A stretch of 63,019 nt of DNA, the filler included, from Raillietiella orientalis (Eukaryota): assembly GCA_036172245.1 (NCBI GenBank). It is 14 parts of 14 records of this genome, joined end to end, with 100 filler letters (N's around TTAATTAATTAA, not from the genome) between each part and the next. Parts side by side here need not be neighbours in the genome. Positions count along the whole stretch, not along the records: positions 45,533 to 49,852 come from JAYWIR010000348.1; 13 more parts are not named here. One strand, given 5' to 3'. Shown in pieces: positions 5,241 to 61,700 of this stretch. The notes beneath the pieces were generated by a model, which saw only the letters and a program-made list of their open reading frames with translations, had not been told where the DNA came from and searched no databases. How positions within the stretch are numbered: the stretch's first letter is position 1; the number at the start of each line of letters is the position of its first letter. The translations under genes were made by a program, and so were the position numbers.

Positions 5241-5244
5241 ATCA

Positions 5245-9353: not shown

Positions 9354-9453
9354 NNNNNNNNNNNNNNNNNNNNNNNNNNNNNNNNNNNNNNNNNNNNTTA
9401 ATTAATTAANNNNNNNNNNNNNNNNNNNNNNNNNNNNNNNNNNNNNNNNNNNN

Positions 9454-18535: not shown

Positions 18536-18671
18536 GGGGTGTTCTCTGGAGGCACCAAACAGGCAGAAGCCNNNNNNNNNNNNNNNNNNNNNNNNNNNNN
18601 NNNNNNNNNNNNNNNTTAATTAATTAANNNNNNNNNNNNNNNNNNNNNNNNNNNNNNNNNNNNNNNNNNNN

Positions 18672-23118: not shown

Positions 23119-23218
23119 NNNNNNNNNNNNNNNNNNNNNNNNNNNNNNNNNNNNNNNNNNNNTTAATTAATTAANNNNNNNNNNNNNNNNNNNNNNNNNN
23201 NNNNNNNNNNNNNNNNNN

Positions 23219-27748: not shown

Positions 27749-28125
27749 AGACTGCATCGTGAGGAATGTCATCGAGTATGCTTCTCGCTTCCTGCAGAGA
27801 GCTACCCGATGGACCCATCTAGGAAGAATGAAAAAGGAACTAGAAGGCATCCTGCAAAGGATGGGCCCTCCCAGCAGTTTTCTGTGAGCCCTTCCCGGCC
27901 CTCCAAACTGTTTTTTTTTTTTTTTTTTTTTGTGGTTTGTTTTCCTTTTTTTTATTTTACTTTTGTTTTCTCCCCCATCCCCCTCCACTGCCGAGGAGAG
28001 CCACACCGAGCTGCGTCCCGGTGTCCCGGCAGTTCCGGTATTGCGTGGCCGTCAGTGGGGCCTTGTACCACGTTCTGTATTGACTGTTGAAATGTTTTTA
28101 ATAAACGTCCCGGCGTATCCGGGTG
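27749..28125 (+). mobile_element. 3' end of family D element
   Basis: Highly similar to 48109-48469; ends AATAAACGTCCCGGCGTATCCGGGTG. Confidence 0.9.
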
Positions 28126-28379
28126 GCATCGCCCGTCGGGCACGCGGGGACCACGAGCAGGGTAGCATGAAGGAACCGTCCGTTCGCCACGGGCGCGAGC
28201 ACGCGTTGGGGAGGAGGGAAGGGGGAGGATTGCGGTCCGCTGCAGCTCTTCCTCTCCGGAGGCTGCAGCCGAGTTTTCCGAGCAGGCGCAGGCGGGCGGA
28301 GAACCCTGCCGGACCGTCCGTTCGGAGGCGGCGGATCCGCACGCGACTGCTCTCCGGTCGCAGCGGGAGGGTGCACTTC

Positions 28380-34671: not shown

Positions 34672-36578
34672 GCCCCAGGGTGGACGTGTTTTCTCGGTGC
34701 TCCTCGTGCCAGGAAGTCTCCCCCAGTGCAAGCGTCGTGTGGTTCGGTGGTCGATCAGGCAGCGATGCCTGACGCGACCACCAGGAATGGCCAGGGGGCA
34801 GCGGCAACGCCGCCCCCAGAGGCGATGGAGAGCCAAAGGGCGGCGGCAACGTCGCCACCAGAAGCGATGGAGGTGGGGGCGTCCGCCCCCACAGAATCGG
34901 TGTCCGCTGCAGCGGGGGCGTAGAGCGCCGTTGTGTCGGCACCATCGCCTGCAGCCGCGGCGGAATTGTCGGCCTATGTAGAGGAGGGGTACAACCCCTC
35001 ATTGTTCTACAAGGTAGGCAATTTATATTCTTTAGAGAGCGCGCGCGCCTTCTCGAAGGGCATGCGCGCTCTCGATGTGAAAGAGGAGGAGCTCAGCGCT
35101 ATGACCATCCGCAGCGGGGATCAGTACGTTGAGGTCATCTGCAAACATGCAGAGCTGGCCCAACGACTGCTTAAAACCCCCGTTGTGATGGGGACGCGCA
35201 GGCTCCTCCCCACTACGGCGGACCGCAGCATGGTGGTCCACCTGTTAGGCGTCACCGCGCGAATGCGCAATGAACAGGTTCGCGCCGCTTTGGAACATTT
35301 CGGAACGGTCCAAGCGCATTGGACGAAAGTAAGTCCTTTCGAGGACTACACGGGGCTGCAACACGGCCTCACTGCTGCTTGCGTGACCGTTCGAGAGGGC
35401 TGCACTCTTCCCCACAAACTGGTGGTCGAAGGCGAAACCGTCGACCTCTGGTATGTGGGGAAGCCGAAATACTGTGGCTTCTGCAATACGTCGGGCCACC
35501 TCAAAAAGAGGTGTCCCAATGTGCAGTGCCAAGTATGCGGAACCATGGGACACACGAGGGAGGTGTGCCCTAAAGCAGCAGTGCGGGTGGTTTCCAAGAG
35601 AAACCTTAAAAAACGCGCCCCGCTTCTGCAGAAAACGCTGGCGGCGAAAGCTGCCGCGAAGGCTGTGCCACCCGCTCCCAAGGCCCAGGCCGCACCCGAG
35701 ACCCCGGCGACCAACGCCGAAAAAGTTGAGATAGCCGGCCAGGAGACTGGGTGGCAAGTGGCAACGGCCAAAAAATCAAACAAGGAGAGGAGGATGGAAA
35801 AAAAAATCGCCTACCAACAGAAGAAGAAAGAGCAGGGTAGCGCGATAATTAAAGAGTAGAGCGTCGTTGTCGAACGCGTTCTCGATGTTGCCGAACGCTG
35901 CCAGAAAGAACTAGCCGCTACCGACGACAACCCCTCTGTTGACTTTGTCAACAGCGAGGGGAGCGAGCCGGCGGCGGCGTCCGTCATCGACACCACCATC
36001 GATGACGTAGCCTTCGCGTGAGCCGCGGAGGAGCTGGCAGCCTCGTTGCAGCAAGAACCCTCCAAGGCTGGCAAGAAGGCCGTAAGGCGTCCGGCCTCCC
36101 CTCAGGAGTCCCCCACTTCCGACCCCGAGGTGGAGACCGGAAGCGCAGCCTCCGTTTCCACGGCACCGCGCAAGAAGGCTGGACGTAAGTCCACAAAGCC
36201 AAGAAAGCTCGTCTCCCCCGTCGAAGGGGAAGAGATGGCTTCCGCAAGCGAGGGTCCCATGAGCGTGGGAAACTCTCGGGACCCATCGCTCGAAAGACTC
36301 CCACGCGCGGACACGGAGAGGATGGAGGGGGTGGAGTCCGAACAGGTGCCTCAGGTGCCTGAGAAGGCCGAAACCCCCATGGACATCCCGCCTGCCTCGC
36401 AAGAGGAGGGCTCCCCCACACCTTAATCTTCCCAGCATTAATGCCGGGAATCTCCTCCCGCCGTCGTCTGCGCATCGCCGTTTGGAACGTGAACGGCATG
36501 ACAGACGCCGGCAGGAGACGAGACATGGCCGCCTTTCTGGAGTCCTACGCCCTTGCGCTGCTGCAGGAGATCCACGCG
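34672..36578 (+). mobile_element. Family A: 5'UTR, ORF1 (34765-36426, with stops) and ORF2 start (36441)
   Basis: MPDATT start, two CCHC knuckles, then IAVWNVNG...LLQEIH. Confidence 0.92.
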
Positions 36579-38165: not shown

Positions 38166-38224
38166 GTGCGAAGGAACACCTTCGCGAACACCTTAGAGGC
38201 ATCACGCTCCGGAATTTCCATTGA

Positions 38225-41006
38225 AACCCGGGTGCGCCGGGACGTTTATTCTCACGAAGAAACATATACAACCTGTGACTGGACCAGTAGTTTAGCCACG
38301 CTCTGGAAAGATATAGCTTGCCGGGCTACCGGTGCACTGACCGGCGCGGTCGACCTAGACAGCAGAGGGGAGGGGGAACGAAACAAAAAGAAAACAAAAA
38401 ATAAAGAAAAATCAGGGAGGGAGCGGGAAGGGATCAGAGTCTGCTGGGAGGGTCCGTCATCCTCTGGAGGATGCCGACAAGCTGTTTCTGCTTGTGTGGT
38501 GCCAGATGGGGCCATCGCGTTGCCATGTTGAAGAAACGGGCGGCATACACGTTGGCATCCCTGTCGCTGGATCCTCCCGTCGCTTTGCTCCATGCCACGA
38601 CGATCCCGCGTAGGCAGCACAGGGCTGCAAGCGAGGCCGCTGGAGGCAGGGCGTCACGGACGAAGAGGGGGCGCAAAGCGTCTCTGGGGTTGCGTCCGGG
38701 GATCCCCAGGGCTGCGGCAAAGCGTTCCCACAAGGGACGGAGGGCAAAAAAATCCACTAACAGGTGGGGGAGGTATTCCCTCTTCCCGGACCTGACACAA
38801 TTAGGGTTGACACCCCCCCGCGTCCAGTGGTGTCGGCGGGCGTTGCAAGGAAGCCCCCAATGCAACACCAGCAGTGCCGAATGTTGCCACTTCATGGCGA
38901 GGGTGCGCAAGTCCATGAGCACCGGGGGCCACTCGAGATGTTCCTCTGGAACATCCAGTAGCTCTTCCCAGCGCAAGAGTCCATTTGCGGTGGTCCTCGG
39001 GGTCGCAGCGTTGGTGAGCTGACGCGTTCTGCAATTCTTGATCTTCTTTGCCCTGCTGAAGATCTTGGCAGTAACCTCCCATTGTGCCCCGACGTCGCTG
39101 CCCAGATGTTCCCGTAAGGTAGGTAGTACCGCAGCAAGGGAGGTTCTGTGTGCCCACGCTCTCCTTCAGGGATTCTCGATGCTTTCTCGGAGCGTGAGGC
39201 GGGCATGCGGCCCGAACAGAGCTATTCGCTCGAGTTGCGGGCTCTGCTCCTGAATCATCGCTTACGTGCGGACGGTTTCCTGCAACCAGTTAGGAACGTT
39301 CGCATGGCGTACGAGGATGCGCGCCGAGTTGTTCTTCACGAGTTTGGCCGCCCTCCGAAGTTGAAGTCCGCAGTGGCAGATGGGGCTTTAGAGTTCAAAG
39401 TAGGACGAGAGTCCCGCATTGCCGGTGGCCCGCTCGACCAGGAGACGTGCAGGGAGACACCAAGGTGTGCACCAATTTTTTGCCATAAAGGCAACAACTC
39501 GGAACTGGAGCTGTAGCTCCAGCCGCTCCAACGTCAGGAGACCCAGACCACCATTCCGACGAGGAGCGCACAAGTCCGAAAGACCGACTCGGGGCCTCCC
39601 TCTGCCCCAAAGGGCGATCCTCAGGAGGTCCTTGGTCCTCTTCCTAGACTCCGCTGAGGGGGGGCAAACAAAAAGCAAGGGGCGAAGGAGGGGGGCCGCA
39701 AACGCGTTCCACGCCGCGGCCCGTTCCTGCAGGTAGAACCTGCCGTCCTGGAACGGGCCGATCGCCGCCTGAGCCTTCTGAAGGCAGCCGGACCACGCTT
39801 CCGCAGGGGAGTAGTCCCCCAACGGCACACCAAGGTACTTGAAGTACCTCACCGTGGGGATCCCCAAACGGACCCAGTCCTGCTGCCCTGCCCACGCCGC
39901 TCCGACTGGCATTACGGACGACTTCGCTCTGTTCACCGTCAGTCCTGTTCCCCGACTCAGCAGGTCGAAGAAGTCCTCGACCGCCGCAGCCGGGGTGGAC
40001 ATAGGCAGCTGCAGCAGAAGGTCGTCCGCGTACGCCGAAACCGCAGGCGTACCGGGACAATCGCACGGCAGGTGCGCCAGAGTCTCCCTGTACGCTCTCA
40101 GCACCAATTCGAAATAGGCGCTGAAGAGCACGGGGCTGAGGCTGTCTCCCTGCCGTATGCTGTGTCGCACCGGTACGCCGTACACGGTGGATCCACTAAC
40201 AAAAACATTAATAAGCGCGTCGCGCCAGCTGGAGCGCAGGTAGGCTAGCAAAGATACCGGGAAGCCCAAGCGTTCCAGAAGCTCCAAAAGGAGATTCTGA
40301 TCGACGCAATCGAATGCTTTATGCAAATCGACTGCGACCGCGAGGGCACATCTCCCCCCCCGACCATCCCGTCTTCCACGGACGGACGCACCGGAATTCC
40401 TGTTGCTTATTATGCTCCTTCCTTGTTGGAGCTCTAACTATGTGGAAGCGTGTAACAGGTTCGCCTCCATACTTCGCCCGCGAACAGCATATGTCTGTTC
40501 CGAGCTGATGAAGATGTTGGCGACCCGTCCCAGGCGCTCTGCCCACAGCGTGGCTAGCAACTTGGCGTCCGCATTCACTATTGTGATGGGACGCCAGTTG
40601 TTCATGCTCCTAAGGTCTCCTCCCTTAGGGAGGAGCCGCACCTTTGCTGAACGAAACGAGGGGGGAACGTCACCTGTTTCCCGGATCAGCAAGGTGAGTT
40701 GCTGTACCAAAAGGATAAGCTCAGCCGCGAAAGTTTGGTAAAACTCCGCGGGCAGGCCGTCCTCCCCTGGATCCTTCCGCCTCTTGAGCTTTCCGATGGC
40801 CGAGAGGATCTCGTCCATCGTGAAAGGCTCGTCAAGGCTTCTTTTCTCCTCCTCCCCGATCGCTGGAGCACCTTCCGGAAGCAGAAGTCGTAAGACGTCT
40901 CGCTCCGGAGGCGCCCTGGCGTACAGGGAGGAGTAAAATTTTCTCACTATCCCGCGTTTCTGAGCGGGAACCGAGTGCTCCCGGCCTTGGTCGTCCAGCA
41001 AGCTGG
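38225..41006 (-). mobile_element. Family F ORF2 (RT + zinc finger) with complete 3' end
   Basis: PGEDGLP, DLHKAFD, QGDSLSP, YADD and terminal hairpin at 38225-38250. Confidence 0.93.
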
Positions 41007-45532: not shown

Positions 45533-48469
45533 GGTTTCGGCGGCGGGGCTCGCAACAAACGCGCGTATTTGCACGCACGTCGTCACGAGAGGAACCCCAA
45601 TGTCCTTCGCCTGGTCGAATATCGCGCCGGAGCCGAGCGACAAGCCTGGCAATCCGGGTCAGCCAGCATGCTGGATGACATGGGCCGGGAACGTTCGTCC
45701 CCGTCTGCGGTACGGAATCTCGTGCGGTGTTTTTATTCCTCCCTTTACGTCAAAACACCACCGGAACAAGACGCCTCGCGGCGATTGCTCATGAGTTGTT
45801 CAGTGGCGATAGGGGAGGAGGAGAGAGAAAGCCTCGATGAGCCTTTCGCGACCGGTGAAATTCTCGCCGGTATCAAAAGGCTCAAGAGACGTAAGGTGCC
45901 AGGGGAGGACGGCTTGCCTGCGAAGTTCTTTCAGAGTCTCGCGGAAGAGCTCGCCCCCCTGGTGCTCGAGTTGTCAAGGCAAATCCGGGACGAAGGCGAT
46001 GTTCCCGCCTCGTTTCGGTCAGCCAGGGTGAGGCTCCTCCCGAAGGAAGGAGACCTCAGAAAACTTTGCAGCTGGCGTGCGATCACGATTGTGAACACGG
46101 ACGCCAAGTTGATTGCCGGGCTGTGGGCTTCGCGATTGGGGCAGGTGTCCAATTCCATAATTAGCCCGGAGCAGACTTACGCTGTTCCCCGGCGAAGTAT
46201 GGAGGACAACCACTTATTCGCGAGCACATGGATGCACGCGCAGCGGAGTAATAAAGGGAAAGGGAAAATTTGCAACCCTACTTTGGGGCCGCCAGTAGGA
46301 CAGGGAAGGGACCCTCATGCGGGAAAGGTGGTATTAGGGATCGTAGTCGACCTCCATAAGGTATTCGACTGTGTTGACCAGGAACTCTTCTTGAAGCTCC
46401 TGGGTCGCATGGGCTTCCCACCCTCCTCGATTACCTACGTGCGCTCTTGCTGGCGGAACGCGATAATCTCAATTACTTTCATTGGACAAAAGGTGTATGG
46501 CGTGCCGGTGCGGCCGGGCATAAGGCAGGGCGACAGCCTCAGCCCCCTGCTTTTTAGCACCTACTCTGAGTTGGTGCTGAGAGCGTACAGGGTGACTTTG
46601 GCCCCTTTGCCGAGCTCGTGCCTCGGCACGCCAGCCGTAGCGGCGTATGCCGACGATCTTATGCTCCTCTTACCTATGTCCACCCCGGCTAAGGCGGTCG
46701 GAGATTAATTCGACCTGCTGAGCCGTGGGGCCGGATTACAGGTTAACAGGGCGAAGTCGTCAGTGTTGCCAGTTGGAGCGACGTGGGCAGGGCAGCAGGA
46801 CTGGGTCCGTCTGAGTATCCCCACGGTGAGGTGCATCGAGTACCTCGGTGTGCCGTTGGGGGACTTCTCCCCTGCGGAAGAGTGGTCTAGCTGCCTCCAG
46901 AAAGTCGAGACGGCGATCGGCTGGTTCCTGGAATGCAAGTTTTACTTGCCGTAACTGGCCGCGGTTTGAACGCCTTCGCTGCCCTCATCCTCCAACCCTT
47001 GCTTTTTGTTTGCTTCGCCCCCGTGGAATCTAAAAAGCGGACGAAAGACCTCCTCCGCATAGCTCTTTGGGGCAAGGGGAGTCCCCGAGTCCCTTTAAAG
47101 GACTTGTGGGCTCCGCGTTGGGACGGCGGTCTCAGCATCCTGACGCTGGAGCGCGTGGAAATCCAGCTGCGATGGCGGACCCTCGCCATCGCAGCGAAGA
47201 TGTGGAACACCGCTTGGTGCATTCCGGCCCGCCTCCTTGCCAGGCGTGTGTCCCGGTGCGATGGACTCGCGTCTTTTCTTCTCAGCCGTGGCCGGAAGAT
47301 GCGAAGATGCGTCCTACTGCTCGGGCGCATGGCAACCCTGGCAAAGGAGAACGAGTAGATGGTTTGTAGCCCTGCGAACTCCTCCGCTTGGCTGGAAGAG
47401 ACTGCTGGCACCTGGGCTAAGCAGAACCAAAGGTGCGAAGACCGGATGAACTGCCTGCGAGTCGGCTTATACGCCCGCCGCATTCTCCGTGAAATTCTTG
47501 AATTTCCACCGAGTTGCACGTGGGCAGAAGGCACACTCCTTGTTACGGCGATGCCCTTCCTACAAAGGGCGCTTCACAAAAGCTAGAAGCCACGGTGGCA
47601 AGTCTGCTGCCGTATCGCAGGCAGAGAGAAGATGATGAGCGGCTGGACCATGGGAGAGTTTACAGATGCAACGACCCCTAGTCTCCAGCCGCGTGGATTA
47701 AGAAGATGGGGCGAGCTGCTCGGCATTCGATTGAATGACCTGAAGTGGCCCCCGGTTCTACTTGGATACAGGATTCTCCCCTTGAAGTGGCAAGAATCGG
47801 CGCTTCTGTGGCTGCATTGGGGTCTACTTTGCAACGCGCGCCGCTTCCACTGGACGCGGGGAAGAGTAAATCCTGCGTGTGCCAGGTGTGGGGAGCGGGA
47901 GTCGCTCCCATACCTCTTAGTTGAATGCCCTGCCGTCCGGATTCTTTGGGATCGTCTGAAAACGGCCCTCCGGATACCGGATGGTGGCAATGTTGAATGT
48001 ATCCTCAGTCTTGTCTTCGTGCGGGACGCTCTCAGTCCAGCCGCAGCCCTGGCAGCACTTTGATGCATTCGTGGTATCGTGGCGACCTGGAGTGAAGCCG
48101 AAGATTAAGACTGCATCGTGAGGGACGTCATCGAGTATGCTCCGCGCTTTCTGCAGAGAGCTACCTAATGGCTCCATCTAGGAAAGCTGAAAATGGAACT
48201 AGAAGCCATCCTGCAAAGGATGGGCGCTCCCAGCAGTTTTCTGTGATCCCTTCCCGGCCCTCCAAACTTTTTTTTTTGTGGTTCGTTTTTCTATTTTATT
48301 TTAATTTGGTTTTTTCCCCCATCCCCCTCCACTGCCGAGGAGAGCCACACCGGGCTGCGTCCCGGTGTCTCGGCAGTTCCGGTATTGCGTGGGCGTCAGA
48401 GGCGCCTTGTACCACGTTCTGTATTGACCGTTGAAATGTTTTTAATAAACGTCCCGGGGTATCCGGGTG
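45533..48469 (+). mobile_element. Family D ORF2 (RT + zinc finger) with complete 3' end, decayed
   Basis: DLHKVFD, QGDSLSP, YADD, CARCGERESLPYLLVEC and terminal hairpin at 48444-48469. Confidence 0.93.
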
Positions 48470-49852
48470 GCATCGCCGAAAGCTGGAGGGAGACGGTTCA
48501 GGGGAAACTGGTCGCAGAACTCGCGGACTGAGCTCCTCAAGTCGTCCCAGTCCGCGAGCGACAGCAGATGGAAGCCTTGCAGGAACGAGCGAAGATGTTG
48601 CGCTGCTCCTGCGAGGCGCAACCAGTCCCCTGGCAAACGCCACGCTGTGGAGGGTGGACCTCTACCGCGCTGGTGTATTTCCACCACTAGCCGGGGATGG
48701 TCGGAAAGTTCGGATAACACTGCCCCTCGATTTCCCAGCCGCGAACACAGGTGGTTGTCGAGGAACATGTGGTCGATCCTCGTCTCCGTCCCGGCGTCAC
48801 CGGCAACAAGTTGCACGCGTGCATGGCAGCGCACATCTCGTTTAACAGCTGTGCGCAAATGTCGGGCGCACCTGCCAGCAGGCGGACGTTAAAGTCCCCG
48901 GCAATGAGGTGCGCCTTTCGCATGTCTGCTTCGGCCAGCCAATCTCGCCGCAGGCCTTCGAAGAACGCAGTGCGTTCTCCGCGCCCGTGGCTCGTGCCGG
49001 GCGCGTACACGTTGGTCACGACGAGGTCGATCACGTCCGACCACTTGGCAACTAGATGTCCGATTTGACCTTCCCCGTCGAAGTGCACGTCGCGCAGCGC
49101 ATTAACGACGGCTGGCTTCAGCATGAAAGCCATACCGCGGGTGTTGTCTCTCCTGTTCTCGTATAGGAGCCGCCCGCCTGCGATCCGTTCGATTTCTTGG
49201 GCCTCCCCTGCGTGGAGCACGTGCGTCTCCTGCAGAAGCCGCAGGTCGAAGTCCTGCAGGCTGGCGGCCACTTCTCTCCTCTTGCCGTCGTCGCGCAACC
49301 CGTTGACGTTCCAACAGATTACGCGCAGTCGCCGGCAGGAGGAAAGTACACGCGTTGGTGTGTTTATGGTGTTTGCTCACCGTCCTCCGCCTGCTGTTCG
49401 GCAGGCGGGAGTTGTGTATCCATTGCGACAGGCTGTTGCTCGCAAGGAGGCCGTCGGTCCGTGGTTGAGGTGGTGGTTGGAGGATCCTGGTTGGTCAGGG
49501 ACGTCTCCGGCGACGAGTGACGAGACCTCGCGGACATCGCCTCCCGTCGTCGTGGTCCGACCGCATTTCCTCCTCCGCCGGTGGAGGTGCGGAGCGCCGC
49601 GGGTTGCCTAACTTGCGGCCCGCTTTGCGCTTCGGGAGAGCGACAGCCGGAGCGTTGACGGCTTCGGCTTCGGACTCGGAAGTCTCCGGACCTTTCGCCT
49701 CAGCCGGACGCCTCAAGGCGTTCTTCTGGGCCTTGGGAGGTTGCTGGAGCATGGCTGCCAACTCTTCCGCCGCCTTGTTGAAGTCCCGGTCGTCGCTGCT
49801 AACGCTGGGCTCGCGACTTTGTCGCGGCGTCGGCGTTCGCGCGGCGGCGAGT
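48470..49852 (-). mobile_element. Family H: ORF1 C-terminus and APE endonuclease, interrupted at AFGD by element D
   Basis: CWNVNGL, LLQETH, TNVYAP, AGDFNV, RIDH, SDH, then FPLNRLPPAFGD. Confidence 0.9.
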
Positions 49853-49952: not shown

Positions 49953-52776
49953 AAGCCTGGCAATCCGGGTCGGCCAGCTTACTGGACGACCAGGGCCGGG
50001 AATGTTCGTCCCCGGCGTCGGTACGGCATCTCGTGCGGAGTTATTATTCCTCCATTTACGCCAGGGCGCCCCCGGATCAAGATGCCTCTCGGCTCTTGCT
50101 TCCGGATGGTGCCGCGGCAATAGGGGAGGAGGAGTCGTTAAGCCTCGATGAGCCTTTTACCACCGGCGAAATTCTCGCCGGTATCAAAAGGCTCAAGAGG
50201 CGGAAAGCTCCAGGGGAAGACGGCTTGCCCGCGGAGTTCTATCAGAGCTTCGCGGAAGAGCTGGCACCCCTGCTGCATCAGCTGAAAAGGCTGATCCGAG
50301 ACGAAGGCAATGTTACCGCCTCGTTTCGGACAGCCAGAGTGAGGCTCCTTCCGAAAGGAGGAGACCTTAGGAATTTGAACAACTGGCGTTCGATCACGAT
50401 TGTGAATACGGACGCCAAGTTGCTTGCCGGGCTATGGGCTTCGCGTCTGGGGCAGGTGGCAGAATCCACAATTAGCCCGGAGCACACATATGCTGTTCCC
50501 GGGCGAAGTATGGATACCAACGTCTTCTTCGCGAACACATGGATGCACGCGCAGAGGTGTCAAAAGGAAGGGAAAGGGAAAATCGGCAACCCCAATTTGG
50601 GGCCGCCAGCAGGGCAGGGAATGGACTCCCGGGCGGGGAAGGGGGCCTTAGCGCTCGCAGTCGATCTCCATAAGGCGTTCGACTGTGTTGACCAGGGGCT
50701 TTTGTTGGAGCTCCTGGGTCGCATGGGCTTCCCACCCTCCTTGATTACCTACCTGCGCTCTTGCTGGCGGAATGCGATTATCTCCATCTCTTTCAGTAGT
50801 CAGAAGGTGTATGGCGTGCCGGTGCGGCGGGGCATCAGGCAGGGAGATAGCCTGAGTGCCCTGCTCTTCAGCACCCACTTTGAGTTGGTGCTGAGAGCGT
50901 ACAGGGTGATTTTGGCCTCCTTGCCGAGCTCGTGTCCCGGCACGCCCGCCGTAGCAGCCTATGCCTACGACCTTCTGCTCCTGTTACCTATGTCCACCCC
51001 GGCGAAGGCGGTCGGCGACTTCTTCGATCTGCTCAGCCGTGGGACCGGACTGCAGCTCAACAGGGCGAAGTCGTCGGTGGTGCCAGTAGGTGCGGCGTGG
51101 GCAGGGCAGCAGGACTGGGTCCGTCTGGGGATCCCCACGGCGAGGTCTCTCAAGCACCTTGGTGTGCCGTTGGGTGACTACTCCCCTTCGGAAGCGTGGT
51201 CCAGCTGTCTTCAACAAGTTGAGACGGCGATCGGCCCGTTCCTAGAAGGAAAGATTCACTTGCCGGAACGGGCCGCGGTTTGGAACGCTTTTGCGGCCCC
51301 CATCCTCCGCTTCTTGCTTTTTGTTTGCCCTGCCCACAGAGAATGCAAAAAGAGGACAAAGGACCACCTCCGCATAGCCCTTTGGGGCAAGGGGAGGCCC
51401 CGAGTTTTTCTGAAGGACTTGTACGGTCCGCGTCGGGACGGCGGCCTTGGCCTCCTGACGCTGGAGCGCGTGGAAATCCAGCTGCGGTGGCGAACCCTCG
51501 CCATCGCAGCGAAGATGTGGAGCACCCCTTGGTGCGTTCCGGCCCGCCTCCTCGCCAGGCGTGTGGCCCGATGCGAAGGACTCGCGTCGTTTCTTCTGTG
51601 CCCTGGCCGGAAGATCCGAAGATGCGGCCTTATGCTCGGACGCATAGCAACCTTGGCGAAGACGAACGGTTGGATGGTTTGTGGCCCCGCCAACTCCTCC
51701 GCCTGGTTGGAGGAGTCTGCTGGCACATGGGCTAAGCTGAACAGCAGGAGCGAAAACCACATGAACTGCCTGCGAATCGGCCCATACGCCAACCGCACCC
51801 TGCGGGAAATACTGGAATTTCCTCGGAGTCGCAGGTGGGCGTTGACGACCCCCCTTGCTACGGCGATGCCCTACCTCCTGAGGGCGCTTCAGGATTGCCA
51901 GAAGCCGAGGTGGCAAGTCACCTGCCAGATCGCAGGCAGGGAGAAGATGTTAAGCGGCTGGACCACAGGAGAACTGGCGGACGCCACGACCCCGAGCGTC
52001 CAGCCGCGTGGACTAATGAGATGGGGCGAGCTGCTCGCCATCCCTACGGATGTGCTGAAGTGGCCCCCGGTATTAAAGGAATCCAGGATCCTGCCCCTTA
52101 AGTGGCAAGAGTCGGCGTTGCTTTTGTTGCACTGGGGTCTACCCTGCAACGCGCGCCGCTTCCACTGGACGAGGGGAGCTGTGGATCCTGCGTGTGCCAG
52201 GTGCGGGGAGCGGGAGTCGCTTCCCTACCTTATTGTGGATTGTGCTGCCATCCGACCCCTCTGGGAACGGTTCGGGGCGACCCTAGGGCTCCCTACGGGC
52301 AGCACCCCCAGAGACGTTCTTCGGCCCCTCTTCGTGAAGGACGCACTGCAGCCAGCCGCAGCCATCGCAGCCTTGTGCTGTGTCCGTGGCATCGTGGCGG
52401 CATGGAGCGACGCCAATAACGAAGGAGTGGGTCCACACGCGAGGGATGTCGTCCCATACGCCCAACGCTTCATGCGGAGAGCTGCCGGATGGCCCCAACT
52501 GGGGAATATACGGACGGACCTCGAGGGCTTCTTTCAACGGATGGGCCCTCCTCACAGCGTTTAGTGATCCCTTCCCTGCCCTCCAACTTCTTTTTGTCTG
52601 TTTATTTTTTTTATATTTCTTTTTGTTTTATCCCCATCCCCCTTCGCTGCTGAGGAACCCTACGCTGGGGTGCGTCCCGGCGTCCCGGCAGGTCCAGTGC
52701 ATATGGTCGTGAGCGGGACCTTGTACCGCGGATGTAGAGTTTTTTTAAAAATAAACGCCCCGGGCGTACCCGGGTG
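49953..52776 (+). mobile_element. Family C ORF2 and complete 3' end
   Basis: Long RT ORF, T-rich 3'UTR, ends AATAAACGCCCCGGGCGTACCCGGGTG. Confidence 0.95.
50033..52564 (+). CDS. ORF2 RT + C-terminal zinc finger (5'-partial), catalytic YADD changed to YAYD
   Basis: 843 codons open with all L1-type RT motifs. AYAYDLL replaces the AYADDLL seen in other copies. Confidence 0.85.
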   Translation: MRSYYSSIYARAPPDQDASRLLLPDGAAAIGEEESLSLDEPFTTGEILAGIKRLKRRKAPGEDGLPAEFYQSFAEELAPLLHQLKRLIRDEGNVTASFRTARVRLLPKGGDLRNLNNWRSITIVNTDAKLLAGLWASRLGQVAESTISPEHTYAVPGRSMDTNVFFANTWMHAQRCQKEGKGKIGNPNLGPPAGQGMDSRAGKGALALAVDLHKAFDCVDQGLLLELLGRMGFPPSLITYLRSCWRNAIISISFSSQKVYGVPVRRGIRQGDSLSALLFSTHFELVLRAYRVILASLPSSCPGTPAVAAYAYDLLLLLPMSTPAKAVGDFFDLLSRGTGLQLNRAKSSVVPVGAAWAGQQDWVRLGIPTARSLKHLGVPLGDYSPSEAWSSCLQQVETAIGPFLEGKIHLPERAAVWNAFAAPILRFLLFVCPAHRECKKRTKDHLRIALWGKGRPRVFLKDLYGPRRDGGLGLLTLERVEIQLRWRTLAIAAKMWSTPWCVPARLLARRVARCEGLASFLLCPGRKIRRCGLMLGRIATLAKTNGWMVCGPANSSAWLEESAGTWAKLNSRSENHMNCLRIGPYANRTLREILEFPRSRRWALTTPLATAMPYLLRALQDCQKPRWQVTCQIAGREKMLSGWTTGELADATTPSVQPRGLMRWGELLAIPTDVLKWPPVLKESRILPLKWQESALLLLHWGLPCNARRFHWTRGAVDPACARCGERESLPYLIVDCAAIRPLWERFGATLGLPTGSTPRDVLRPLFVKDALQPAAAIAALCCVRGIVAAWSDANNEGVGPHARDVVPYAQRFMRRAAGWPQLGNIRTDLEGFFQRMGPPHSV

Positions 52777-52790
52777 TAAACCTCCAAGAC

Positions 52791-54262
52791 CAGTTGGAGG
52801 ACGTGTTTTTCCTTCACTCTTCAAAGAGTAGTAGGAAAGCGCTTTCTTGTGTGTGGTGTTTTGCGTACATCGTCGGTGTCCAATGGCCACGACGCCAGAG
52901 GACACCGCGATGGAGGTGGGTGTGGGGGAGGCTAGTTCGCCCCCAAAGCCTACAGGAGCAGGGGCAGCCGCCCCGGAATCATCCCCGGCCACGCTGAGGA
53001 CATGTAGCGCCATGGTGGCCGCGCCCAGCGCAGAAGCCATGGCGGAGCTGGCCGCATACAAGGCCTCCGGGTACAAGCCATCGCTTGTCTACCAGATAGC
53101 CAACTTGTTCGACGACCGGACAGCGCGCGCCTTCAGCAAAGCGTTGAAGGACGCAAATGTTACTGAGAAGGATCTGGACGGCATCTCCGTCCTCAGCGGC
53201 GGGGAGCGGGTTGAGGTGGTCTGCAAAGATGTCACCTTGGCTCACCGCCTAATCCATGCGCCGCTGAACGTAGACGGCCGCAAGATCCTGCCAGTATCAA
53301 TGGACCGCTCCGTGGTGGTCCACATGACTGGCATCACCAGCCGCATGACGTGGTCAGCGGTTGGTGAGCAACTACGAAAGTACGGTGAGGTGCACGCACT
53401 GTGGCCGAAAACCTCCATTTTCGACGGCTTCGATAGCCTTTTTGGTGGGCAAGCTGCAGCGCGGGTCACTGTAAGGGAGAATTGTGGGCTTCCCCACAAA
53501 CTACAGGTGGCGCAAGAAAACGTCGACCTGTGGTATGTAGGGAAGCCCCGGTATTGCGGGCATTGATACCATGGGATACCTACGTAAAAGATGTCCCAAT
53601 ATACAATGCCATTTGTGCAGGGAGCGGGGCCACGTTCGGCGCGTGTGCCCCAAACGCCACACCCCGGTTCCCCCTGCCGCGAAAAAAGCGCAGGGGAAAC
53701 GCGCTTCAAAGGTCTCTAGACCTAAAGTAGAAAAGGACCAGCACAAGCTGCCAACACATCAACCTTCGGCGCGTAAGCCCGAGGATAAACCTTCTGAAAC
53801 GGTGAAAGGCGAAGAGGGATGGCAGCTTGTAGAGGCCAGAAAGCCAAGGAAACTCCCACCCGCGGAGAGCAAAGAGCGCAAGACGGCCGGTAAGCCGAAA
53901 AAACCCGGTCCGCGCTCGAAAACTCTGCGCGAGTGCACGGTGGCACTGGAACGAATCGTCGTTCCCGAGGCTGCCACCCGGGGCGACGAGCCTCCCCTTG
54001 CCGTTTCCGCTGCGCCCGAGGCTCGCGACGGCGAACTCTCTGTTTACACAGAGGGTGAGCCGCGCGACATAGCGGCGGTCGAAGCCGCGGACGCCGCGTT
54101 CGCGCAGGCGGCGGAGGAGCTCGCGGTCACGCTGGCCGAGCGTGAGAACCCCTCGCGCAAGGCCGTGCGAAGGCCGGCTCCGGCGAGGAAGGCCCCCAAA
54201 GGTGAGCTAGACCTGGGGGTCGGAAGCACATCCTCCTCCTCGGAGGCACCCCCCAGGAACAA
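52791..54262 (+). mobile_element. Family B: 5'UTR and ORF1 (ATG 52883, frameshift at about 53564)
   Basis: Same 5' start as 2757; MATTPE ORF1 with CCHC knuckles. Confidence 0.92.
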
Positions 54263-54362: not shown

Positions 54363-57300
54363 CACGCTCAAATGAAATTTCGAACTCTTCTTAATCATGC
54401 TGTGAAAGCAGAGATTGAAAGGGCTTGCGGCTCTCCATGAAAGGGATTTGCCACTCACTGCAAAAGGATACTTCGTGAAGAGGCGCAAAACTGCAATGGT
54501 GAAATCTTCTGTTTTCTAATTGAATACAAACCCCCAAAAGCTGCAAAGTTGGACCACATAATGAATGGGAGCGAAGGAGAATATTTCCCTTCGAAGTCCG
54601 ACACTGGTTACCATGAAAACAACACAGAGTTCAAAGTGCCACGCCCTAATGAAGTTTCGAACTCTTCTTAATCATCCTCTGAAAGCAGAGATTGGAAGGG
54701 CTTGCGGCTCTCCATGAAAGGGATTTGCCACTTACTGCAAAAGGATACTTCGTGAAGAGGCGCAAAAGTGCAATGGTGAAATCTTTTGTTTTCTAATTTC
54801 TTACATATCCGCAAAAGCTGCAAAGTTGCACCACATAATGAAAGAGAGCGAAGGAGAATATTCCCTTTGTAAGTCCGACACTGGTTACCATGAAAACGAG
54901 ACAGAAAACAAAGTGCCACGCCCTAATGAAATTTCGAACTCTTCTTAATCATTCTCTGAAAGCCGAAATTGGAAGGGCTTTGGGCTCTCCATGAAAGGGA
55001 TTTGCCACTCACTGCAAAAGGATGCTTCGTGAAGAAATGCAAAAGTCCAATGGTGAAATCTTCTGTTTTCTAATTGAATACAAATCCCCAAAAGCTGCAA
55101 AGTTGGACCACATAATGAATGGGAGCGAACGAGAATATTCCCCTTGTAAGTCCGACACTGGTTACTATGAAAACAACACAGAGTCCAAAGTGCCACGTCC
55201 AAATGAAATTTCGAACTCTTCTTAATCATCCTCTGAAAGCAGAAATTGAAAGGGCTTTCGGCTCTAAATGAAATGGATTTGCCACTCACTGCAAAAGGAT
55301 GTTTCGTGAAGAGGAGCAAAAGTGCAATGGTGATATCTTCTGTTTTCTAATTTCTTAAATATCCACAAAAGCTGCAGTGTTGGACCACATAATGAATGAG
55401 AGCGAAGGAGAATATTCCCCTTGAAAGTCCGACACTGGTTACCATGAAAACAAGACAGAGTCCAAAGTGCCACGCCCTAATGAAATTTCGAACTCTTCTT
55501 AATCATCCTCTGAAAGCAGAAATTGGAAGGCCTATCGGCTCTCCATGAAAGGGATTTGCCACTCACTGCAAAAGGATGCTTCGTGAAGAGGTGCAAAAGT
55601 GCAATGGTGAAATCATCTGTTTTGTAATTGAATACAAATCCCTAAAAGCTGCAAAGTTGGACCACATAATGAATGGGAGCGAACGAGAATACTCCCCTTG
55701 TAAGTCCGACACTGGTTACCATGAAAACAACACAGAGTCCAAAGTGCCACGCCCAAATGAAATTTCGAACTCTTCTTAATCATCCTCTGAAAGCAGAGAT
55801 TCGAAGGGCTTGCGGCACTCCATGAAAGGGATTTGACACTCACTGCAAAAGGATACTTCGTGAAGAGGCGCAAAAGTGCAATGGTGAAATCTTCTGTTTT
55901 CTTATTTCTCAAATATCCACAAAAGCTGCAATGTTGGACCACATAATGAATGATAGCGAAGGAGAATATTCCCCTTGAAAGTCCCACACTTGTTACCATG
56001 AAAACAAGACCGAGTCCAAAGTGCCACGCCCAAATGAAATTTCGAACTCTTCTTAATCATCCTCTGAAAGCAGAGATTGGAAGGGCTTGCGGCTCTCCAT
56101 GAATGGGATTTGCCACTCACTGCAAAAGGATACTTCGTGAAGAGGCGCAAAAGTGCAATGGTGAAATCTTCTGTTTTCTAATTTCTTAAATATCCACAAA
56201 TGCTGCAATGTTGGACCACATAATGAATGGGAGCGAACGAGAATATTCCCCTTGAAAGTCCGACACTGGTTACCATGAAAACAAGACCGAGTCCAAAGTG
56301 CCACGCCCTAATGAAATTTCGAACTCTTCTTAATCATTCTCTGAAAGCCGAAATTGGAAGGGCTTTGGGCTCTCCATGAAAGGGATTTGCCACTCACTGC
56401 AAAAGGATGCTTCGTGAAGAAATGCAAAAGTGCAATGGTGAAATCTTCTGTTTTCTAATTTCTTAAATATCCACAAAAGCTGCAATGTTGGACCACATAA
56501 TGAATGAGAGCGAAGGAGAATATTCCCCTTGAAAGTCCGACACTGGTTACCATGAAAACAAGACCGAGTCCAAAGTGCCACGCCCTAATGAAATTTCGAA
56601 CTCTTCTTAATCATCCTCTGAAAGCAGAGATTGGAAGGGCTTGCGGCTCTCCATGAAAGGGATTTGCCACTCACTGAAAAAGGATGCTTCGTGAACAGGC
56701 GCAAAACTGCAATGGTGAAATCTTCTGTTTTCTAATTGAATACAAACCCCCAAAAGCTGCAAAGTTGGACCACATAATGAATGGGAGCGAACGAGAATAT
56801 TCCCCTTCTAAGTCCGACACTGGTTACCATGAAAACAACACAGAGTTCAAAGTGCCACGCCCAAATGAAATTTCGAACTCTTCTTAATCATCCTCTGAAA
56901 GCAGAGATTGAAAGGGCTTGCGGCTCTCCATGAAAGGGATTTGCCACTCACTGCAAAAGGATACTTCGTGAAGAGGCGCAAAACTGCAATGGTGAAATCT
57001 TCTGTTTTCTAATTGAATACAAACCCCCAAAAGCTGCAAAGTTGGACCACATAATGAATGGGAGCGAACGAGAATATTTCCCTTCTAAGTCCGACACTGG
57101 TTACCATGAAAACAACACAGAGTTCAAAGTGCCACGCCCTAATGAAGTTTCGAACTCTTCTTAATCATCCTCTGAAAGCAGAGATTGGAAGGGCTTGCGG
57201 CTCTCCATGAAAGGGATTTGCCACTCACTGCAAAAGGATACTTCGTGAAGAGGCGCAAAAGTGCAATGGTGAAATCTTTGTTTTCTAATTTCTTACATAT

Positions 57301-58650
57301 CCGCAAAAGCTGCAAAGTTGCACCACATAATAAAAGCGAAGGAGAATATTCCCTTGTAAGTCCGACACTGGTTACCATGAAAACAAGACAGAAAACAAAG
57401 TGCCACGCCCTAATGAAATTTCGAACTCTTCTTAATCATTCTGAAAGCAGAAATTGGAAGGGCTTTCGGCTCTCCATGAAAGGATTTGCCACTCACTGCA
57501 AAAGGATGCTTCGTGAAGAGGTGCAAAAGTGCAATGGTGAAATCTTCTGTTTTCTAATTGAATACAAATCCCCAAAAGCTGCAAAGTTGGACCACATAAT
57601 GAATGGGAGCGAAGGAGAATATTCCCCTTGTAAGTCCGACACTGGTTACCATGAAAACAAGACAGAGTAAAAGTGCCACGCCCTAATGAAATTTCGAACT
57701 CTTCTTAATCATCCTCTGAAAGCAGAAATTGGAAGGGCTTTCGGCTCTCCATGAAAGGGATTTGCCACTCACTGCAAAAGGATGCTTCGTGAAGAGGCGC
57801 AAAAGTGCAATGGTGAAATCTTCTGTTTTCTAATTTCTTACAAATCCCCAAAAGCTGCAAAGTTGGACCACATAATGAATGAGAGCGAAGGAGAATATTC
57901 CCCTTGTAAGTCCGACACTGGTTACCATGAAAACAAGACAGAGTCCAAAGTGCCACGCCCTAATGAAATTTCGAACTCTTCTTAATCATCCTCTGAAAGC
58001 AGAAAATTGGAAGGGCTTGCGGCTCTCCATGAAAGGGGTTTGCCACTCACTGCAAAAGGATGCTTCGTGAAGAGGCGCAAAAGTGCAATGGTGAAATCTT
58101 CTGTTTTGTAATTGATTACAAATCCCCAAAAGCTTGAAAGTTCGACCGCATAATGATTGAGAGCGAAGTTGAATATTCCCCTTGTAAGTCCGACACTGGT
58201 TACCATGAAAACAAGATAGAGACCAAAGTGCCACGCCCTAATGAAATTTCGAACTCTTCTTAATCATCCTCTGAAAGCAGAAAATTGGAAGGGCTTGCGG
58301 CTCTCCATGAAAGGGATTTGCCACTCACTGCAAAAGGATGCTTCGTGAAGAGGCGCAAAAGTGCAATGGTGAAATCTTCTGTTTTCTAATTGATTACAAA
58401 TCCACAAAAGCTTGAAAGTTCGACCAAATAATGAATGAGAGCGAAGGAGAATATTCCCCTTGTAAGTCCGACACTGGTTACCATGAAAACAAGATAGAGA
58501 CCAAAGTGCCACGCCCTAATGAAATTTCGAACTCTTCTTAATCATCCTCTGAAAGCAGAGATTGGAAGGGCTTGCGGCTCTCCATGAAAGGGATTTGCCA
58601 CTCACTGCAAAAGGATACTTCGTGAAGAGGCGCAAAAGTGCAATGGTGAA
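54363..58650 (-). repeat. 277-bp satellite family 1, opposite orientation (about 15.5 monomers)
   Basis: Reverse complement of the 18672-22560 monomer; period 277 (56053 to 56330). Confidence 0.97.
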
Positions 58651-58750
58651 NNNNNNNNNNNNNNNNNNNNNNNNNNNNNNNNNNNNNNNNNNNNTTAATT
58701 AATTAANNNNNNNNNNNNNNNNNNNNNNNNNNNNNNNNNNNNNNNNNNNN

Positions 58751-61700
58751 CTTTTCTATTTCCAATGTGGTGTTTTCCGTCCAAATCTCCGCACTAGCAC
58801 CAAAACGACCATGGCCGCTTCCCGATGAATTCGGTCGCAATCCTGAGACGTGAAAATGGTTGGAATCAATCTACTTCCACTTCCAGCATAGAAATCGAAT
58901 CTACAAAGTGTATCCGAAAAATTCCTCTATCTTTTCTATTTCCAATGTGGTGTTTTCCGTCCAAATCTCCGCACTTGCACCAAAACGACCATGGCCGTTT
59001 CCCGATGAATTCGGTCGCAATCCTGAGACATCAAAATGGTTGGAAGCAATCTACTTCCACTTCCTACATCCAAATACAATCTTCAAAGTGAATCAAAAAA
59101 ATTCCTCTATCTTTTGTATTTCCGATGTGGTGTTTTCCGTCCAAATCTCCGCACTTGCACCAAAACGACCATGGCCGTTCCCCGATGAATTCGGTCGCAA
59201 TCCTGAGACATCAAAACGGTTGGAAGCAATCTACTTCCACTTTCTGCATCCAAATAGAATCTTCAAAGTGTTTCCTAAAAATTTCTCTATCTTCTCTATT
59301 TCCAATGTGGTGTTTTCGGTACAAATCTCCACACTAGCACCAAAACGACCATGGTCGGTTCCCGATGAATTCGGTCGCAATCCTGAGACATCAAAACGGT
59401 TGGAAGCAATCTACTTCCACTTTCTGCATCCAAATAGAATCTTCAAAGTGTTTCCTAAAAATTTCTCTATCTTCTCTATTTCCAATGTGGTGTTTTCCGT
59501 ACAAATCTCCACACTAGCACCAAAACGACCATGGTCGGTTCCCGATGAAATCGGTCGCAATGCTGAGACATCAAAATGGTTCGAATCAATCTACTTCGTC
59601 TTCCAGCATAGAAATTGAATCTTCAAAATGCATCACAGAAATTCCTCTATCTTTTCTATTTCCAATGTGGTGTTTTCCGTCCAAATCTCCGCACTTGCAC
59701 GTAAACGACCATGGCCGCTTCCCGATGAATTCGGTCGGAATCCTGAGACATCAAAATGGTTGGAATCAATCTACTTCCTCTTCCAGCATAGAAATTGAAT
59801 CTTCAAAATGCATCACAGAAATTCCTCTATCTTTTCTATTTCCAATGTGGTGTTTTCCGTCCAAATCTTCGCACTTGCACCAACACGACCATGGCCGGTT
59901 CCCGATGAATTCGGTCGCAATCGTACATGAAAATGGTTGACGTACTTCCACTTCCAGCATAGAGATAGAATCCTCAAAGTAATCCGAAAAAATTCCTTTA
60001 TCTTTTCTATTTCCAATGTGGTGTTTTCCTTCCAAAATCTGACTTGCACCAAATCAACCATGGCCGCTTCCCGATAATCTGTCCAAATCCTGAGACATCA
60101 AAATGGTTGGAAGCAATCTACTCCGTCTTCCAGGATAGAAATTGAATCTTCAAAATGCATCACAGAAATTCCTCTATGTTTTCTATTTCCAATGTGGTGT
60201 TTTCCGTCCAAATCTTCGCACTTGCACCAAAACGACCATGGCCGGTTCCCGATGAATTCGGTCGCAATCCTGAGACATGAAAATGGTTGGAATCAATGTA
60301 CTTCCACTTCCAGCATAGAGACAGAATCCTCAAAGTGCATCAAACAAATTCCTTTATCTTTTTTATTTCCAATGTGGTGTTTTCCGTCCAAATCTCCAAA
60401 CTTGCATGTAAACGACCATGGCCGCTTCCCGATGAATTCGGTCTCAATCCTGAGACATCAAAATGGTTGGAATCAATCTACTTCCTCTTCCAGCATAGAA
60501 ATAGAATCTTTAAAATGCAGCAAGAAAATTCCTCTATCTTTTGTATTTCCAATGTGGTGTTTTCCGTCCAAATCTCCGCACTTGCACGAAAACGACCATG
60601 GCCGGTTCCCGATTAATTCGGTCGCAATCCTGAGACATCAAAATGCTTGGAATCAATCTACTTCGTCTTCCAGCATAGAAATTGAATCTTCAAAATGCAT
60701 CACAGAAATACCTCTATGTTTTCTATTTCCAGTGTGGTGTTTTCCGTCCAAATCTCCGCACTTGCACGAAAACGACCATGGCCGGTTCCCGATTAATTCG
60801 GTCGCAATCCTGAGACATGAAAATGGTTGGAAGCAATCTACTTCTACTTCGTACATCCAAATAGAATCTTCAAAGTGGATCAAAAAAATTCCTCTATCTT
60901 TTCTATTTCCAATGTGGTGTTTTCCGTCCAAATCTCCGCACTAGCACCAAAACGACCATGGCCGCTTCCCGATGAATTCGGTCGCAATCCTGAGACGTGA
61001 AAATGGTTGGAATCAATCTACTTCCACTTCCAGCATAGAAATCGAATCTACAAAGTGTATCCGAAAAATTCCTCTATCTTTTCTATTTCCAATGTGGTGT
61101 TTTCCGTCCAAATCTCCGCACTTGCACCAAAACGACCATGGCCGTTTCCCGATGAATTCGGTCGCAATCCTGAGACATCAAAATGGTTGGAAGCAATCTA
61201 CTTCCACTTCCTACATCCAAATACAATCTTCAAAGTGAATCAAAAAAATTCCTCTATCTTTTGTATTTCCGATGTGGTGTTTTCCGTCCAAATCTCCGCA
61301 CTTGCACCAAAACGACCATGGCCGTTCCCCGATGAATTCGGTCGCAATCCTGAGACATCAAAACGGTTGGAAGCAATCTACTTCCACTTTCTGCATCCAA
61401 ATAGAATCTTCAAAGTGTTTCCTAAAAATTTCTCTATCTTCTCTATTTCCAATGTGGTGTTTTCCGTACAAATCTCCACACTAGCACCAAAACGACCATG
61501 GTCGGTTCCCGATGAAATCGGTCGCAATGCTGAGACATCAAAATGGTTCGAATCAATCTACTTCGTCTTCCAGCATAGAAATTGAATCTTCAAAATGCAT
61601 CACAGAAATTCCTATATCTTTTCTATTTCCAATGTGGTGTTTTCCGTCCAAATCTCCGCACTTGCACGTAAACGACCATGGCCGCTTCCCGATGAATTCG

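Follow-up and report, generated by a model that had tools for sequence, protein, structure and literature searches.

A conserved 45-nt bulged hairpin in the 3' untranslated regions of L1-like LINEs of Raillietiella orientalis: a possible signal for stringent 3' tail recognition

Does a short block that recurs behind the reverse transcriptase genes of retrotransposons in Raillietiella orientalis form a structured RNA, and what might such a structure do for the elements carrying it? The question is raised by a stretch of 63,019 nucleotides of assembly GCA_036172245.1 (hereafter the window), in which a block of 45 nt, here called SL1, occupies a fixed place in the 3' untranslated region (3'UTR) of eight copies of L1-like retrotransposons that lack long terminal repeats (non-LTR), or long interspersed nuclear elements (LINEs). 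In the reading that we hold with about even confidence, and which draws on analogy, SL1 would be a cis-acting RNA hairpin in these LINE 3'UTRs, recognised by the elements' own open reading frame 2 (ORF2) protein in a stringent type of 3' tail recognition. All statistics given below rest on this one window, with eight copies that belong to about five to six families and include two pairs of near-duplicates.

The copies are listed here with their minimum free energy (MFE) and their score under a covariance model (CM), where determined; pairs are given as positions counted along the 45 nt.
48332-48376, plus strand: SL1 of family D (copy D_48k), loop CUGCGU, 7:39 also paired; MFE -26.6 kcal/mol, z -3.39; CM 62.4 bits.
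27988-28032, plus strand: SL1 of the second family D copy (D_28k), A.C mismatch at 22:31; CM 61.2 bits.
52647-52691, plus strand: SL1 of family C, 18:35 G-C, 5:41 and 20:33 U-G; MFE -23.4 kcal/mol, z -2.46; CM 52.8 bits.
7799-7843, minus strand: SL1 of family A', 10:37 U-A, 23:30 U-A, 17:36 U-G; MFE -22.1 kcal/mol, z -2.49; CM 61.6 bits.
10455-10499, minus strand: SL1 of the second family A' copy; CM 64.7 bits.
38318-38362, minus strand: SL1 of family F, outer stem partly decayed, apical stem kept; MFE -14.9 kcal/mol, z -0.19; CM 49.6 bits.
30366-30410, minus strand: SL1 of the decayed copy X; CM 48.9 bits.
About 32668-32712, minus strand: very diverged SL1 homologue of the distant family Y, loop CUGCGU; CM 39.4 bits.

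A preliminary description of the window had reported a block of exactly 45 nt in D, C, A' and F and a decayed copy near 30365-30410. The block was recovered, gap-free, at every one of these places, and the decayed copy is X; seven of the copies align without a gap. The outer stem motif CTGCCG-N(25-40)-CGGCAG has four exact matches in the window against 0.13 expected, a number reached by none of 100 shuffles. A covariance model built from the eight copies recovers, by construction, only those eight (39.4-64.7 bits), and the best other match in the window scores 15.7 bits (E 0.44). The loops read CUGCGU (in D and Y), GUGCGU, CUGCAA, CUGCGA, CAGUGC and CUGCGC, with G26 invariant in all eight copies, and the 3' flanks are TTCC, GTCC and GCTC. 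In every one of the eight LINE 3' ends, SL1 starts 82-85 nt past the ORF2 stop codon and 55-72 nt ahead of an AATAAA, at about 90-100 nt from the 3' end of the element. The family C copy lies behind the only ORF2 that is open across its whole contig part (50033-52564).

In the predicted fold, positions 1-6 pair with 40-45 and 8-10 with 37-39, position 7 is bulged, a 6-nt bulge (11-16) lies on the 5' side, and an apical stem (17-23 with 30-36) carries a hexaloop, giving 16 base pairs. This bulged hairpin is both the MFE and the centroid structure in D, C and both A' copies. The D, C and A' copies have energies of -22.1 to -26.6 kcal/mol and z values of -2.46 to -3.39, with 2-4 of 200 shuffles folding as well. 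RNAalifold, run on seven whole 3' tails, returned unprompted the same 16 pairs together with two further hairpins, SL2 and SL3. Over the eight aligned sequences, 88.2% of 127 cells are paired and the covariation score is 0.304 against 0.195, neither of which was reached by any of 500 shuffles, while registers slid along the same alignment give 25-48% paired cells. Three pairs show double changes, i.e., 10:37 (A-U in D and C, U-A in A', U-G in F), 18:35 (A-U, G-C, G-U) and 23:30 (G-C in D and C, U-A in A' and F, C-G in Y). Family Y keeps five of the seven apical pairs (22:31 as A-U and 23:30 as C-G among them) and has neither an outer stem nor a robust fold; a longer fold of the Y copy did not reproduce SL1, and Y was used as an alignment row only. 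Considering the RNAalifold result, the pair counts and the double changes, the earlier proposal of a conserved structured element of LINE 3'UTRs with compensatory changes is borne out. It had extended the outer stem CTGCCG/CGGCAG by (AG)/(CT); the stem itself stands, whereas the extension is found in D_48k only, position 7 being bulged and 8-10 pairing with 37-39 elsewhere.

The pairing might also arise without any RNA function, through common descent, gene conversion or a role in DNA (a protein-binding palindrome or a first-strand cDNA hairpin), with the base pairs as a by-product of CCGG palindromes. To this we give a slim chance. In D and A', the antisense strand (z -3.51 and -2.59) is about as good a folder as its sense counterpart, the two CCGG cores are invariant and hence uninformative on pairing, and the sample is small and made of related copies. 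On the other hand, the alignment holds 11 G.U cells in the sense strand, which become mismatches if read on the opposite strand, and in the C copy the fold of the antisense strand is poor (z -0.91, where the sense strand has -2.46); we therefore read SL1 as a sense-strand RNA structure. The three double-change pairs, which together with the G.U cells are specific to the sense strand, likewise argue against a by-product, as do the fixed length inside an indel-rich UTR, the advantage of the hairpin over all slid registers (88% vs 25-48%) and the age of the families, which is sufficient for their ORF2 to have diverged to about 55-60% identity.

The preliminary description had suggested that SL1 might be a pseudoknot, with an inner hairpin (AGCC/GGCT, ACCC/GGGT or GACC/GGTC, depending on the family) whose loop pairs with a downstream strand (ACACCG/CGGTGT and its counterparts, positions 16-21 with 32-37). 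The second complementarity is not a separate helix, being the 7-bp apical stem of an ordinary hairpin. The inner hairpin has its 4-bp complementarity in D, C, A' and F, in two registers instead of a common one, and it is absent in X. As described, the pseudoknot is not supported: its inner helix 12-15:22-25 is paired in 56% of cells over the eight rows and 60% over five rows (one row per family, with D_28k, the second A' copy and Y dropped), and the whole model was matched by 106/500 and 224/500 shuffles in cells paired and by 144/500 and 182/500 in covariation. Besides, it leaves zero linker nucleotides between the helices, and its inner hairpin competes with the apical stem for G21-G23.

A re-registered version deserves more weight, namely a pseudoknot or a two-conformer switch in which the 5' bulge (11-15) pairs with 21-25 and 17-20 with 33-36, within the outer stem. 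Helix 11-15:21-25 (register i+j=36) forms in C, A' and F, has 80% of its cells paired over the five family representatives, shows double changes at 12:24 (G-C/C-G) and 13:23 (A-U/C-G), and does about as well as the three apical pairs that it would replace; at least four Watson-Crick pairs between the bulge and 21-25 are available in four of the five families. The whole re-registered knot, with 86.7% of cells paired (reached by 8/500 shuffles) and a covariation of 0.306 (10/500), is about equal to the hairpin. Nevertheless, the helix fits D only after a shift of the register by one and is missing from X, and its paired fraction is 67.5% over the eight sequences. Shuffling the bulge yields a helix of at least four pairs in 20-73% of cases (5-20% if only Watson-Crick pairs count), and the apical stem, at -8.4 to -13.1 kcal/mol, is more stable than the alternative hairpin, at -4.4 to -5.5 kcal/mol. 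By steric reasoning and not by computation, a knot that the covarying pair 10:37 closes directly would also be without linker nucleotides. We consider such a knot or switch improbable, and the ground state of SL1 is best read from these fold models as a plain bulged hairpin.

What surrounds this hairpin bears on its possible role. The 3'UTR is about 230 nt long and has the same layout in all eight LINE copies: the stop codon in TGATCCCTTCCC, a pyrimidine tract of variable length, SL1, the SL2 region, a U/A-rich spacer, AATAAACG, SL3 and a terminal ...GGGT(G). For the D copy, the parts other than SL1 are as follows.
48244-48246, plus strand: ORF2 stop codon, start of the post-stop block TGATCCCTTCCC, with the frame taken from a tblastn match.
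48263-48331, plus strand: pyrimidine tract, T-rich and then C-rich, which precedes SL1 in every copy; 37 of 84 columns gapped.
48393-48422, plus strand: SL2, a second hairpin whose sequence varies among families; RNAalifold pairs 77-89:93-106, several of them broken, and thus weakly supported.
48444-48449, plus strand: AATAAA, probable polyadenylation signal, invariant in seven of the eight copies.
48453-48467, plus strand: SL3, terminal hairpin CCCGG-(5-6 nt loop)-CCGGG found by RNAalifold, directly ahead of the element end ...GGGTG.

SL2 is clearest in A', from 7779 downward (GTGGCTGGA/TCCAGCCAC). SL1 has no gapped column in the alignment, against 2-37 in the remaining segments that lie between the post-stop block and AATAAA. 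Among the five family representatives, mean pairwise identity is highest for AATAAA plus SL3 (0.80), followed by SL1 (0.67), the pyrimidine tract (0.65), the SL2 region (0.47) and the spacer (0.39). The terminal motif AATAAACGNNCCGG(N4-6)CCGGGT has seven matches in the window against 0.00 expected, and, together with SL1, it offers a sharp marker by which the 3' ends of this family can be annotated in a part of the genome that is rich in repeats and poorly assembled. A block of 12-14 nt spanning the ORF2 stop (TGTGATCCCTTCCC; 48238-48262 and the homologous places) is also nearly identical in D, C, A' and F, and the ORF2 ends around it are diverged.

None of the eight copies has a run of A after ...CCGGGT(G); all of them end in AATAAACG..CCGG(N4-6)CCGGGT(G), and the poly(A) tail that marks the L1 clade is absent from the genomic copies. 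For A', the 3' end was mapped to the nucleotide (...GGGTGAA) at two independent junctions by comparison with four uninterrupted homologues of the target. In target sense the junction reads ...AAAGCATTCGATT followed by TTCACCCGG..., and the element end is ...CCGGGTGAA, 23 nt past AATAAA. The 3' ends of the other families are fixed to within about 3-20 nt. Both D copies carry GGCATCGCC behind GGGT (48468-48477, 28124-28133), with unrelated flanks further on; the C 3' end is followed by 13 nt (52776-52789) and then by the 5' end of another LINE (CCAGTTGGAG...), and F has about 19 extra nt (38207-38225) before its target resumes. A common target motif was looked for at the D, F and C 3' junctions, where the boundaries are not fixable, and none was established.

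The A' junctions lead to a result that is more surprising than SL1 itself, i.e., repeated insertion at one site of a reverse transcriptase (RT) gene. The RT motif ...VDLxKAFD... is covered by eight ORF2 copies, and in four of them an antisense LINE interrupts the gene at exactly this place, the insertion site in the KAFD-coding DNA lying between ...GCRTTCGAYT (...AARGCRTTCGAYT) and GCG. The junctions are the following.
7697/7698 and 10353/10354, inserts antisense to the target: LINE 3' junctions, both at the identical bond.
1350/1351 and 34672/34673, inserts antisense to the target: LINE 5' junctions, 16 and 23 nt upstream of that bond.

The offsets of the 5' junctions are the pattern expected from staggered nicks with target-site duplication. 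Identity between the two A' inserts is about 93%, against about 70% between their targets (57% in the 150 nt next to the junction), and the targets of the two 5' junctions belong to families with ORF2 under 40% identical. The four insertions are thus independent, given that the inserts are far more alike than their targets and that the 5'-junction targets come from distant families. From the sequence of four junctions, two of them with 5' inserts of unassigned family, this suggests an L1-like LINE with sequence specificity, directed at the RT gene of related elements. If the use of this site holds genome-wide, it would explain why these LINEs nest in one another. A bolder proposal, which we regard as a long shot, would join both results: the poly(A)-less 3'UTR with its three hairpins, with SL1 as the family-specific part, may be the RNA module of an L1-clade LINE lineage that is sequence-specific for other LINEs and inserts antisense at one KAFD-coding bond, the bulge and loop of SL1, perhaps via 11-15:21-25, coupling the choice of the cognate RNA to targeted priming. 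If true, this would describe a LINE that lives on rival LINEs and disables them.

The host elements are L1-like LINEs in the sense that their ORF2 reverse transcriptase is closest to L1 ORF2p by sequence match to the PDB, and not by RT phylogeny. The RVT_1 domain scores 53-55 bits in ORF2, and phmmer searches of the PDB matched human L1 ORF2p chains with E 1.4e-31 and 3.6e-29, a chain deposited as 'Reverse transcriptase-like protein' with E 4.5e-12, and chains named R2 with E 2.5e-8 and 5.4e-4. The ORF2 N terminus, cut off by contig ends, gave, as regards an APE-type endonuclease, a weak match to an L1 endonuclease chain (E 0.33) and no Pfam hit, and an upstream ORF contains a weak CCHC knuckle (E 0.0072, under Pfam's cut-off). 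The ORF2 proteins of the SL1-bearing families are about 55-77% identical to one another. Among 5.8 billion proteins searched, there was one close relative (64% identity), the other 14 matches being 21-29% identical.

For elements of this kind, a cDNA that starts at a fixed nucleotide implies that the LINE must read its own 3' tail. The transcripts most likely end about 20 nt past AAUAAA, just behind SL3; the A' end, 23 nt past AATAAA, lies at a distance that would fit cleavage and polyadenylation there, and the RNA may be polyadenylated although the genomic copies are not. The ORF2 protein would bind SL1 together with SL2 and SL3, marking the RNA as a template, and the bound hairpins would position the RNA 3' end so that target-primed reverse transcription begins at a defined nucleotide. 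The ...GATT-3' end of the nicked target would then serve as primer, with synthesis beginning on the first one or two A's. By analogy with the stringent LINEs that have been studied, we infer both the binding by ORF2p and the role in priming. Recognition by the RT is also a reasonable inference from context, as there is no poly(A) run, the 3' ends are defined, and at least one lineage appears to insert site-specifically. We further speculate that family-specific letters in the bulge and loop, set on a conserved stem, suit the discrimination of cognate RNA.

The same position could serve the processing or the stability of the RNA, for instance if SL1 were an upstream cleavage/polyadenylation element, hindered 3' exonucleases, or served as a signal for export or translation. 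Its distance of 55-72 nt upstream of a conserved AATAAA and the pyrimidine-rich tract just ahead of it would suit such a role, and priming would be assigned more readily to SL3, which lies closer to the 3' end. We hold this explanation to be possible but unlikely, as curated stability elements are among the Rfam families that SL1 does not match, a U-rich internal loop of the poly(A)-clamp kind is missing, and the poly(A)-less, precisely ended copies argue for a reading of the tail by the RT.

A search of the whole window against Rfam at the gathering score returned the U4 RNA only. With E values up to 10, the D, C and A' 3'UTRs gave few and weak matches (11.8-17.9 bits) to unrelated families, none of them centred on SL1 and none of them a ribozyme, an R2 element or a stability element. 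One of these, a Chlorobi-1 match at 48293-48348 on the opposite strand (16.5 bits, where the gathering score is 50), takes in the first 17 nt of the D copy. A poly(A) clamp of the ENE kind was considered as a candidate and dropped, SL1 being without a U-rich internal loop and without an Rfam match. HDV-like ribozymes occur in some LINEs, and a small self-cleaving ribozyme or another catalytic RNA was therefore among the explanations weighed. It is hardly tenable: the Rfam covariance-model search found no ribozyme family, either at E up to 10 in the three 3'UTRs or at the gathering score in the whole window, in line with the earlier impression by eye that SL1 does not match HDV, hammerhead or twister. 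Besides, a bulged hairpin of 16 bp has no multi-helix core, and the copies run uninterrupted through SL1 to their common 3' end about 90 nt downstream.

Several observations weigh against the reading of SL1 as a hairpin recognised by the ORF2 protein. With only five families, the support from covariation is modest: the three double changes may represent as few as three events, and those at 10:37 and 23:30 lie on one and the same split, (D,C) versus (A',F). Over the five family representatives, 90.0% of 80 cells are paired (reached by 35/500 shuffles) with a covariation of 0.287 (13/500), so that this set exceeds its shuffle control only modestly; by the tool's own warning, such shuffle counts are not probabilities. 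The outer stems are weakened in F, X and Y, which are perhaps decayed copies, yet the alignment is weakened with them. SL3, with its higher conservation (0.80) and a place nearer to the 3' end, could itself be the primary recognition signal, with SL1 doing something else. A partner short interspersed nuclear element (SINE) with a shared tail was not found, the covariance model placing SL1 only behind LINE ORF2s, which over 63 kb of one genome is a weak negative.

Relatives were not found outside the window either, in metagenome, genome or viral contigs. Scanning metagenomes with the terminal motif yielded 93 loci, of which none was BLAST-similar to the window, in keeping with the roughly 40 chance matches estimated for the 18 specified bases. 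Over all 95 loci collected, the SL1 model found only an Amycolatopsis locus (25.9 bits, preselected by the SL1 pattern), plus two at E>0.2. Genome contigs held no relative by protein and one chance match by the SL1 pattern, and viral contigs none by protein and 0 and 1 chance match by two patterns. A literature search for three short tail motifs as literal letters gave no match. In one DNA sequencing run (contigs, 0.11 of words), 222 short contigs fit at 80% likeness, 146 of them under 90% alike; no variant fell within 48332-48376 among 40 of the 523 variant rows, and the run yielded no usable covariation.

Conserved 3'UTR hairpins by which a LINE RT chooses its own RNA are well known in L2, CR1, R1 and R2 and have been proposed for a few plant L1s. 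Otherwise the L1 clade serves as the textbook case of 'relaxed' recognition that depends on poly(A); the L1-type Zepp has a poly(A) tail. SL1 would be a familiar kind of signal in a further LINE lineage, and a role in recognition by the RT is plausible by context and precedent. The stringent LINEs UnaL2 of eel and ZfL2-1 and ZfL2-2 of zebrafish need a 3' stem-loop, which is bound by the ORF2 region between the endonuclease and the RT (PMC4176376). They have in common with the elements described here a conserved 3'UTR stem-loop, a defined copy end instead of a long poly(A), and a stem that is kept while the letters of loop or bulge are family-specific. However, UnaL2 and ZfL2 belong to the L2 clade and have a single hairpin near the 3' end and short terminal repeats, whereas our elements are L1-like by ORF2, and SL1 lies about 90-100 nt from the end with two more hairpins and AATAAA behind it.

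Closer by clade is a plant L1 group (maize LINE1-1_ZM, ZmSINE2/3; Ohshima 2012), which has a 3' hairpin of about 50 nt with compensatory stem changes (PMC3747384). The likeness to SL1 lies in the L1-clade host, in a conserved 3' hairpin of similar length and in its compensatory changes, read as a sign of stringent recognition. Conserved features of the plant hairpin are a UCU loop and a 3' flank of CGAG, whereas SL1, with CUGCGU as a loop, has neither motif, and the plant elements end in poly(A) and have partner SINEs, in contrast to the poly(A)-less elements of the window, where no partner SINE was seen. No sequence homology between SL1 and the plant hairpin is claimable. Ohshima's proposal is that stringent recognition is ancestral in L1 (PMC3747384), and a further data point on this matter would come from a second L1-like lineage, unrelated to the first, whose tail is structured and poly(A)-less.

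The R2 protein binds two stem-loops of the R2 3'UTR (PMC11194090). There too the 3'UTR has several hairpins, which in R2 are selectively bound by the protein and position the template for target-primed reverse transcription, and R2 is site-specific without a need for poly(A). On the other hand, R2 has one ORF and a restriction-like endonuclease, while the ORF2 found here is far closer to L1 ORF2p, and the 3'UTRs have no Rfam match to R2. For human L1 and Alu, a bulged stem-loop in the 3'UTR has been proposed computationally (PMC5135761). It resembles SL1 in a loop of 5-7 nt, in a bulge several pairs below the loop and in its location in an L1 3'UTR; human L1 is poly(A)-dependent and relaxed, whereas here there is no poly(A) run, and the bulge has 6 nt and lies seven pairs below the loop. 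As for the nesting of the elements, the L1-type LINEs Zepp and ZeppL of green algae form clusters (PMC9940879) and, like the elements of the window, pile up in or next to one another in repeat-rich regions beside satellites, a likeness by description only. The available text of PMC9940879 names no insertion site of the KAFD type for Zepp or ZeppL.

The window itself is a chain of separate contigs of steadily decreasing size (4572, 4565, 4453 ... 4288 nt), joined by 13 linker blocks of 100 nt (44 N, TTAATTAATTAA and 44 N; at 4682-4781, 9354-9453, 14019-14118 and then every ~4.4 kb), and adjacency across a linker is artificial because the parts are separate contigs. The D_48k copy lies on the part from JAYWIR010000348.1 (45,533 to 49,852). 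The GC-rich contigs (57-64% GC) are packed with pieces of non-LTR retrotransposons, nested and side by side, and the AT-rich contigs consist of two satellite families, with units of 277 bp and 180 bp, that fill whole contigs. The remaining features are the following.
18600-27168 and 54363-58650, both orientations on different contigs: 277-bp satellite, 92-98% identity.
58651-62998: 180-bp satellite.
5154-5291, minus strand: full-length match to U4 small nuclear RNA, 93.9 bits against a gathering score of 46.

The U4 match sits within GC-rich, coding-like sequence, and its 5' end faces a plus-strand LINE ORF region that starts at about 5325. The 5' ends of full-length inserts (1351-1420, 34673-34740, 52790-52830, 2760-2800) have a common start region, with ...GGA(C/G)GTGTTT... 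followed by ...GGTGCTCCTCGTGCC..., 10-25 nt from the junction, which may be a 5'UTR or promoter element of the family.

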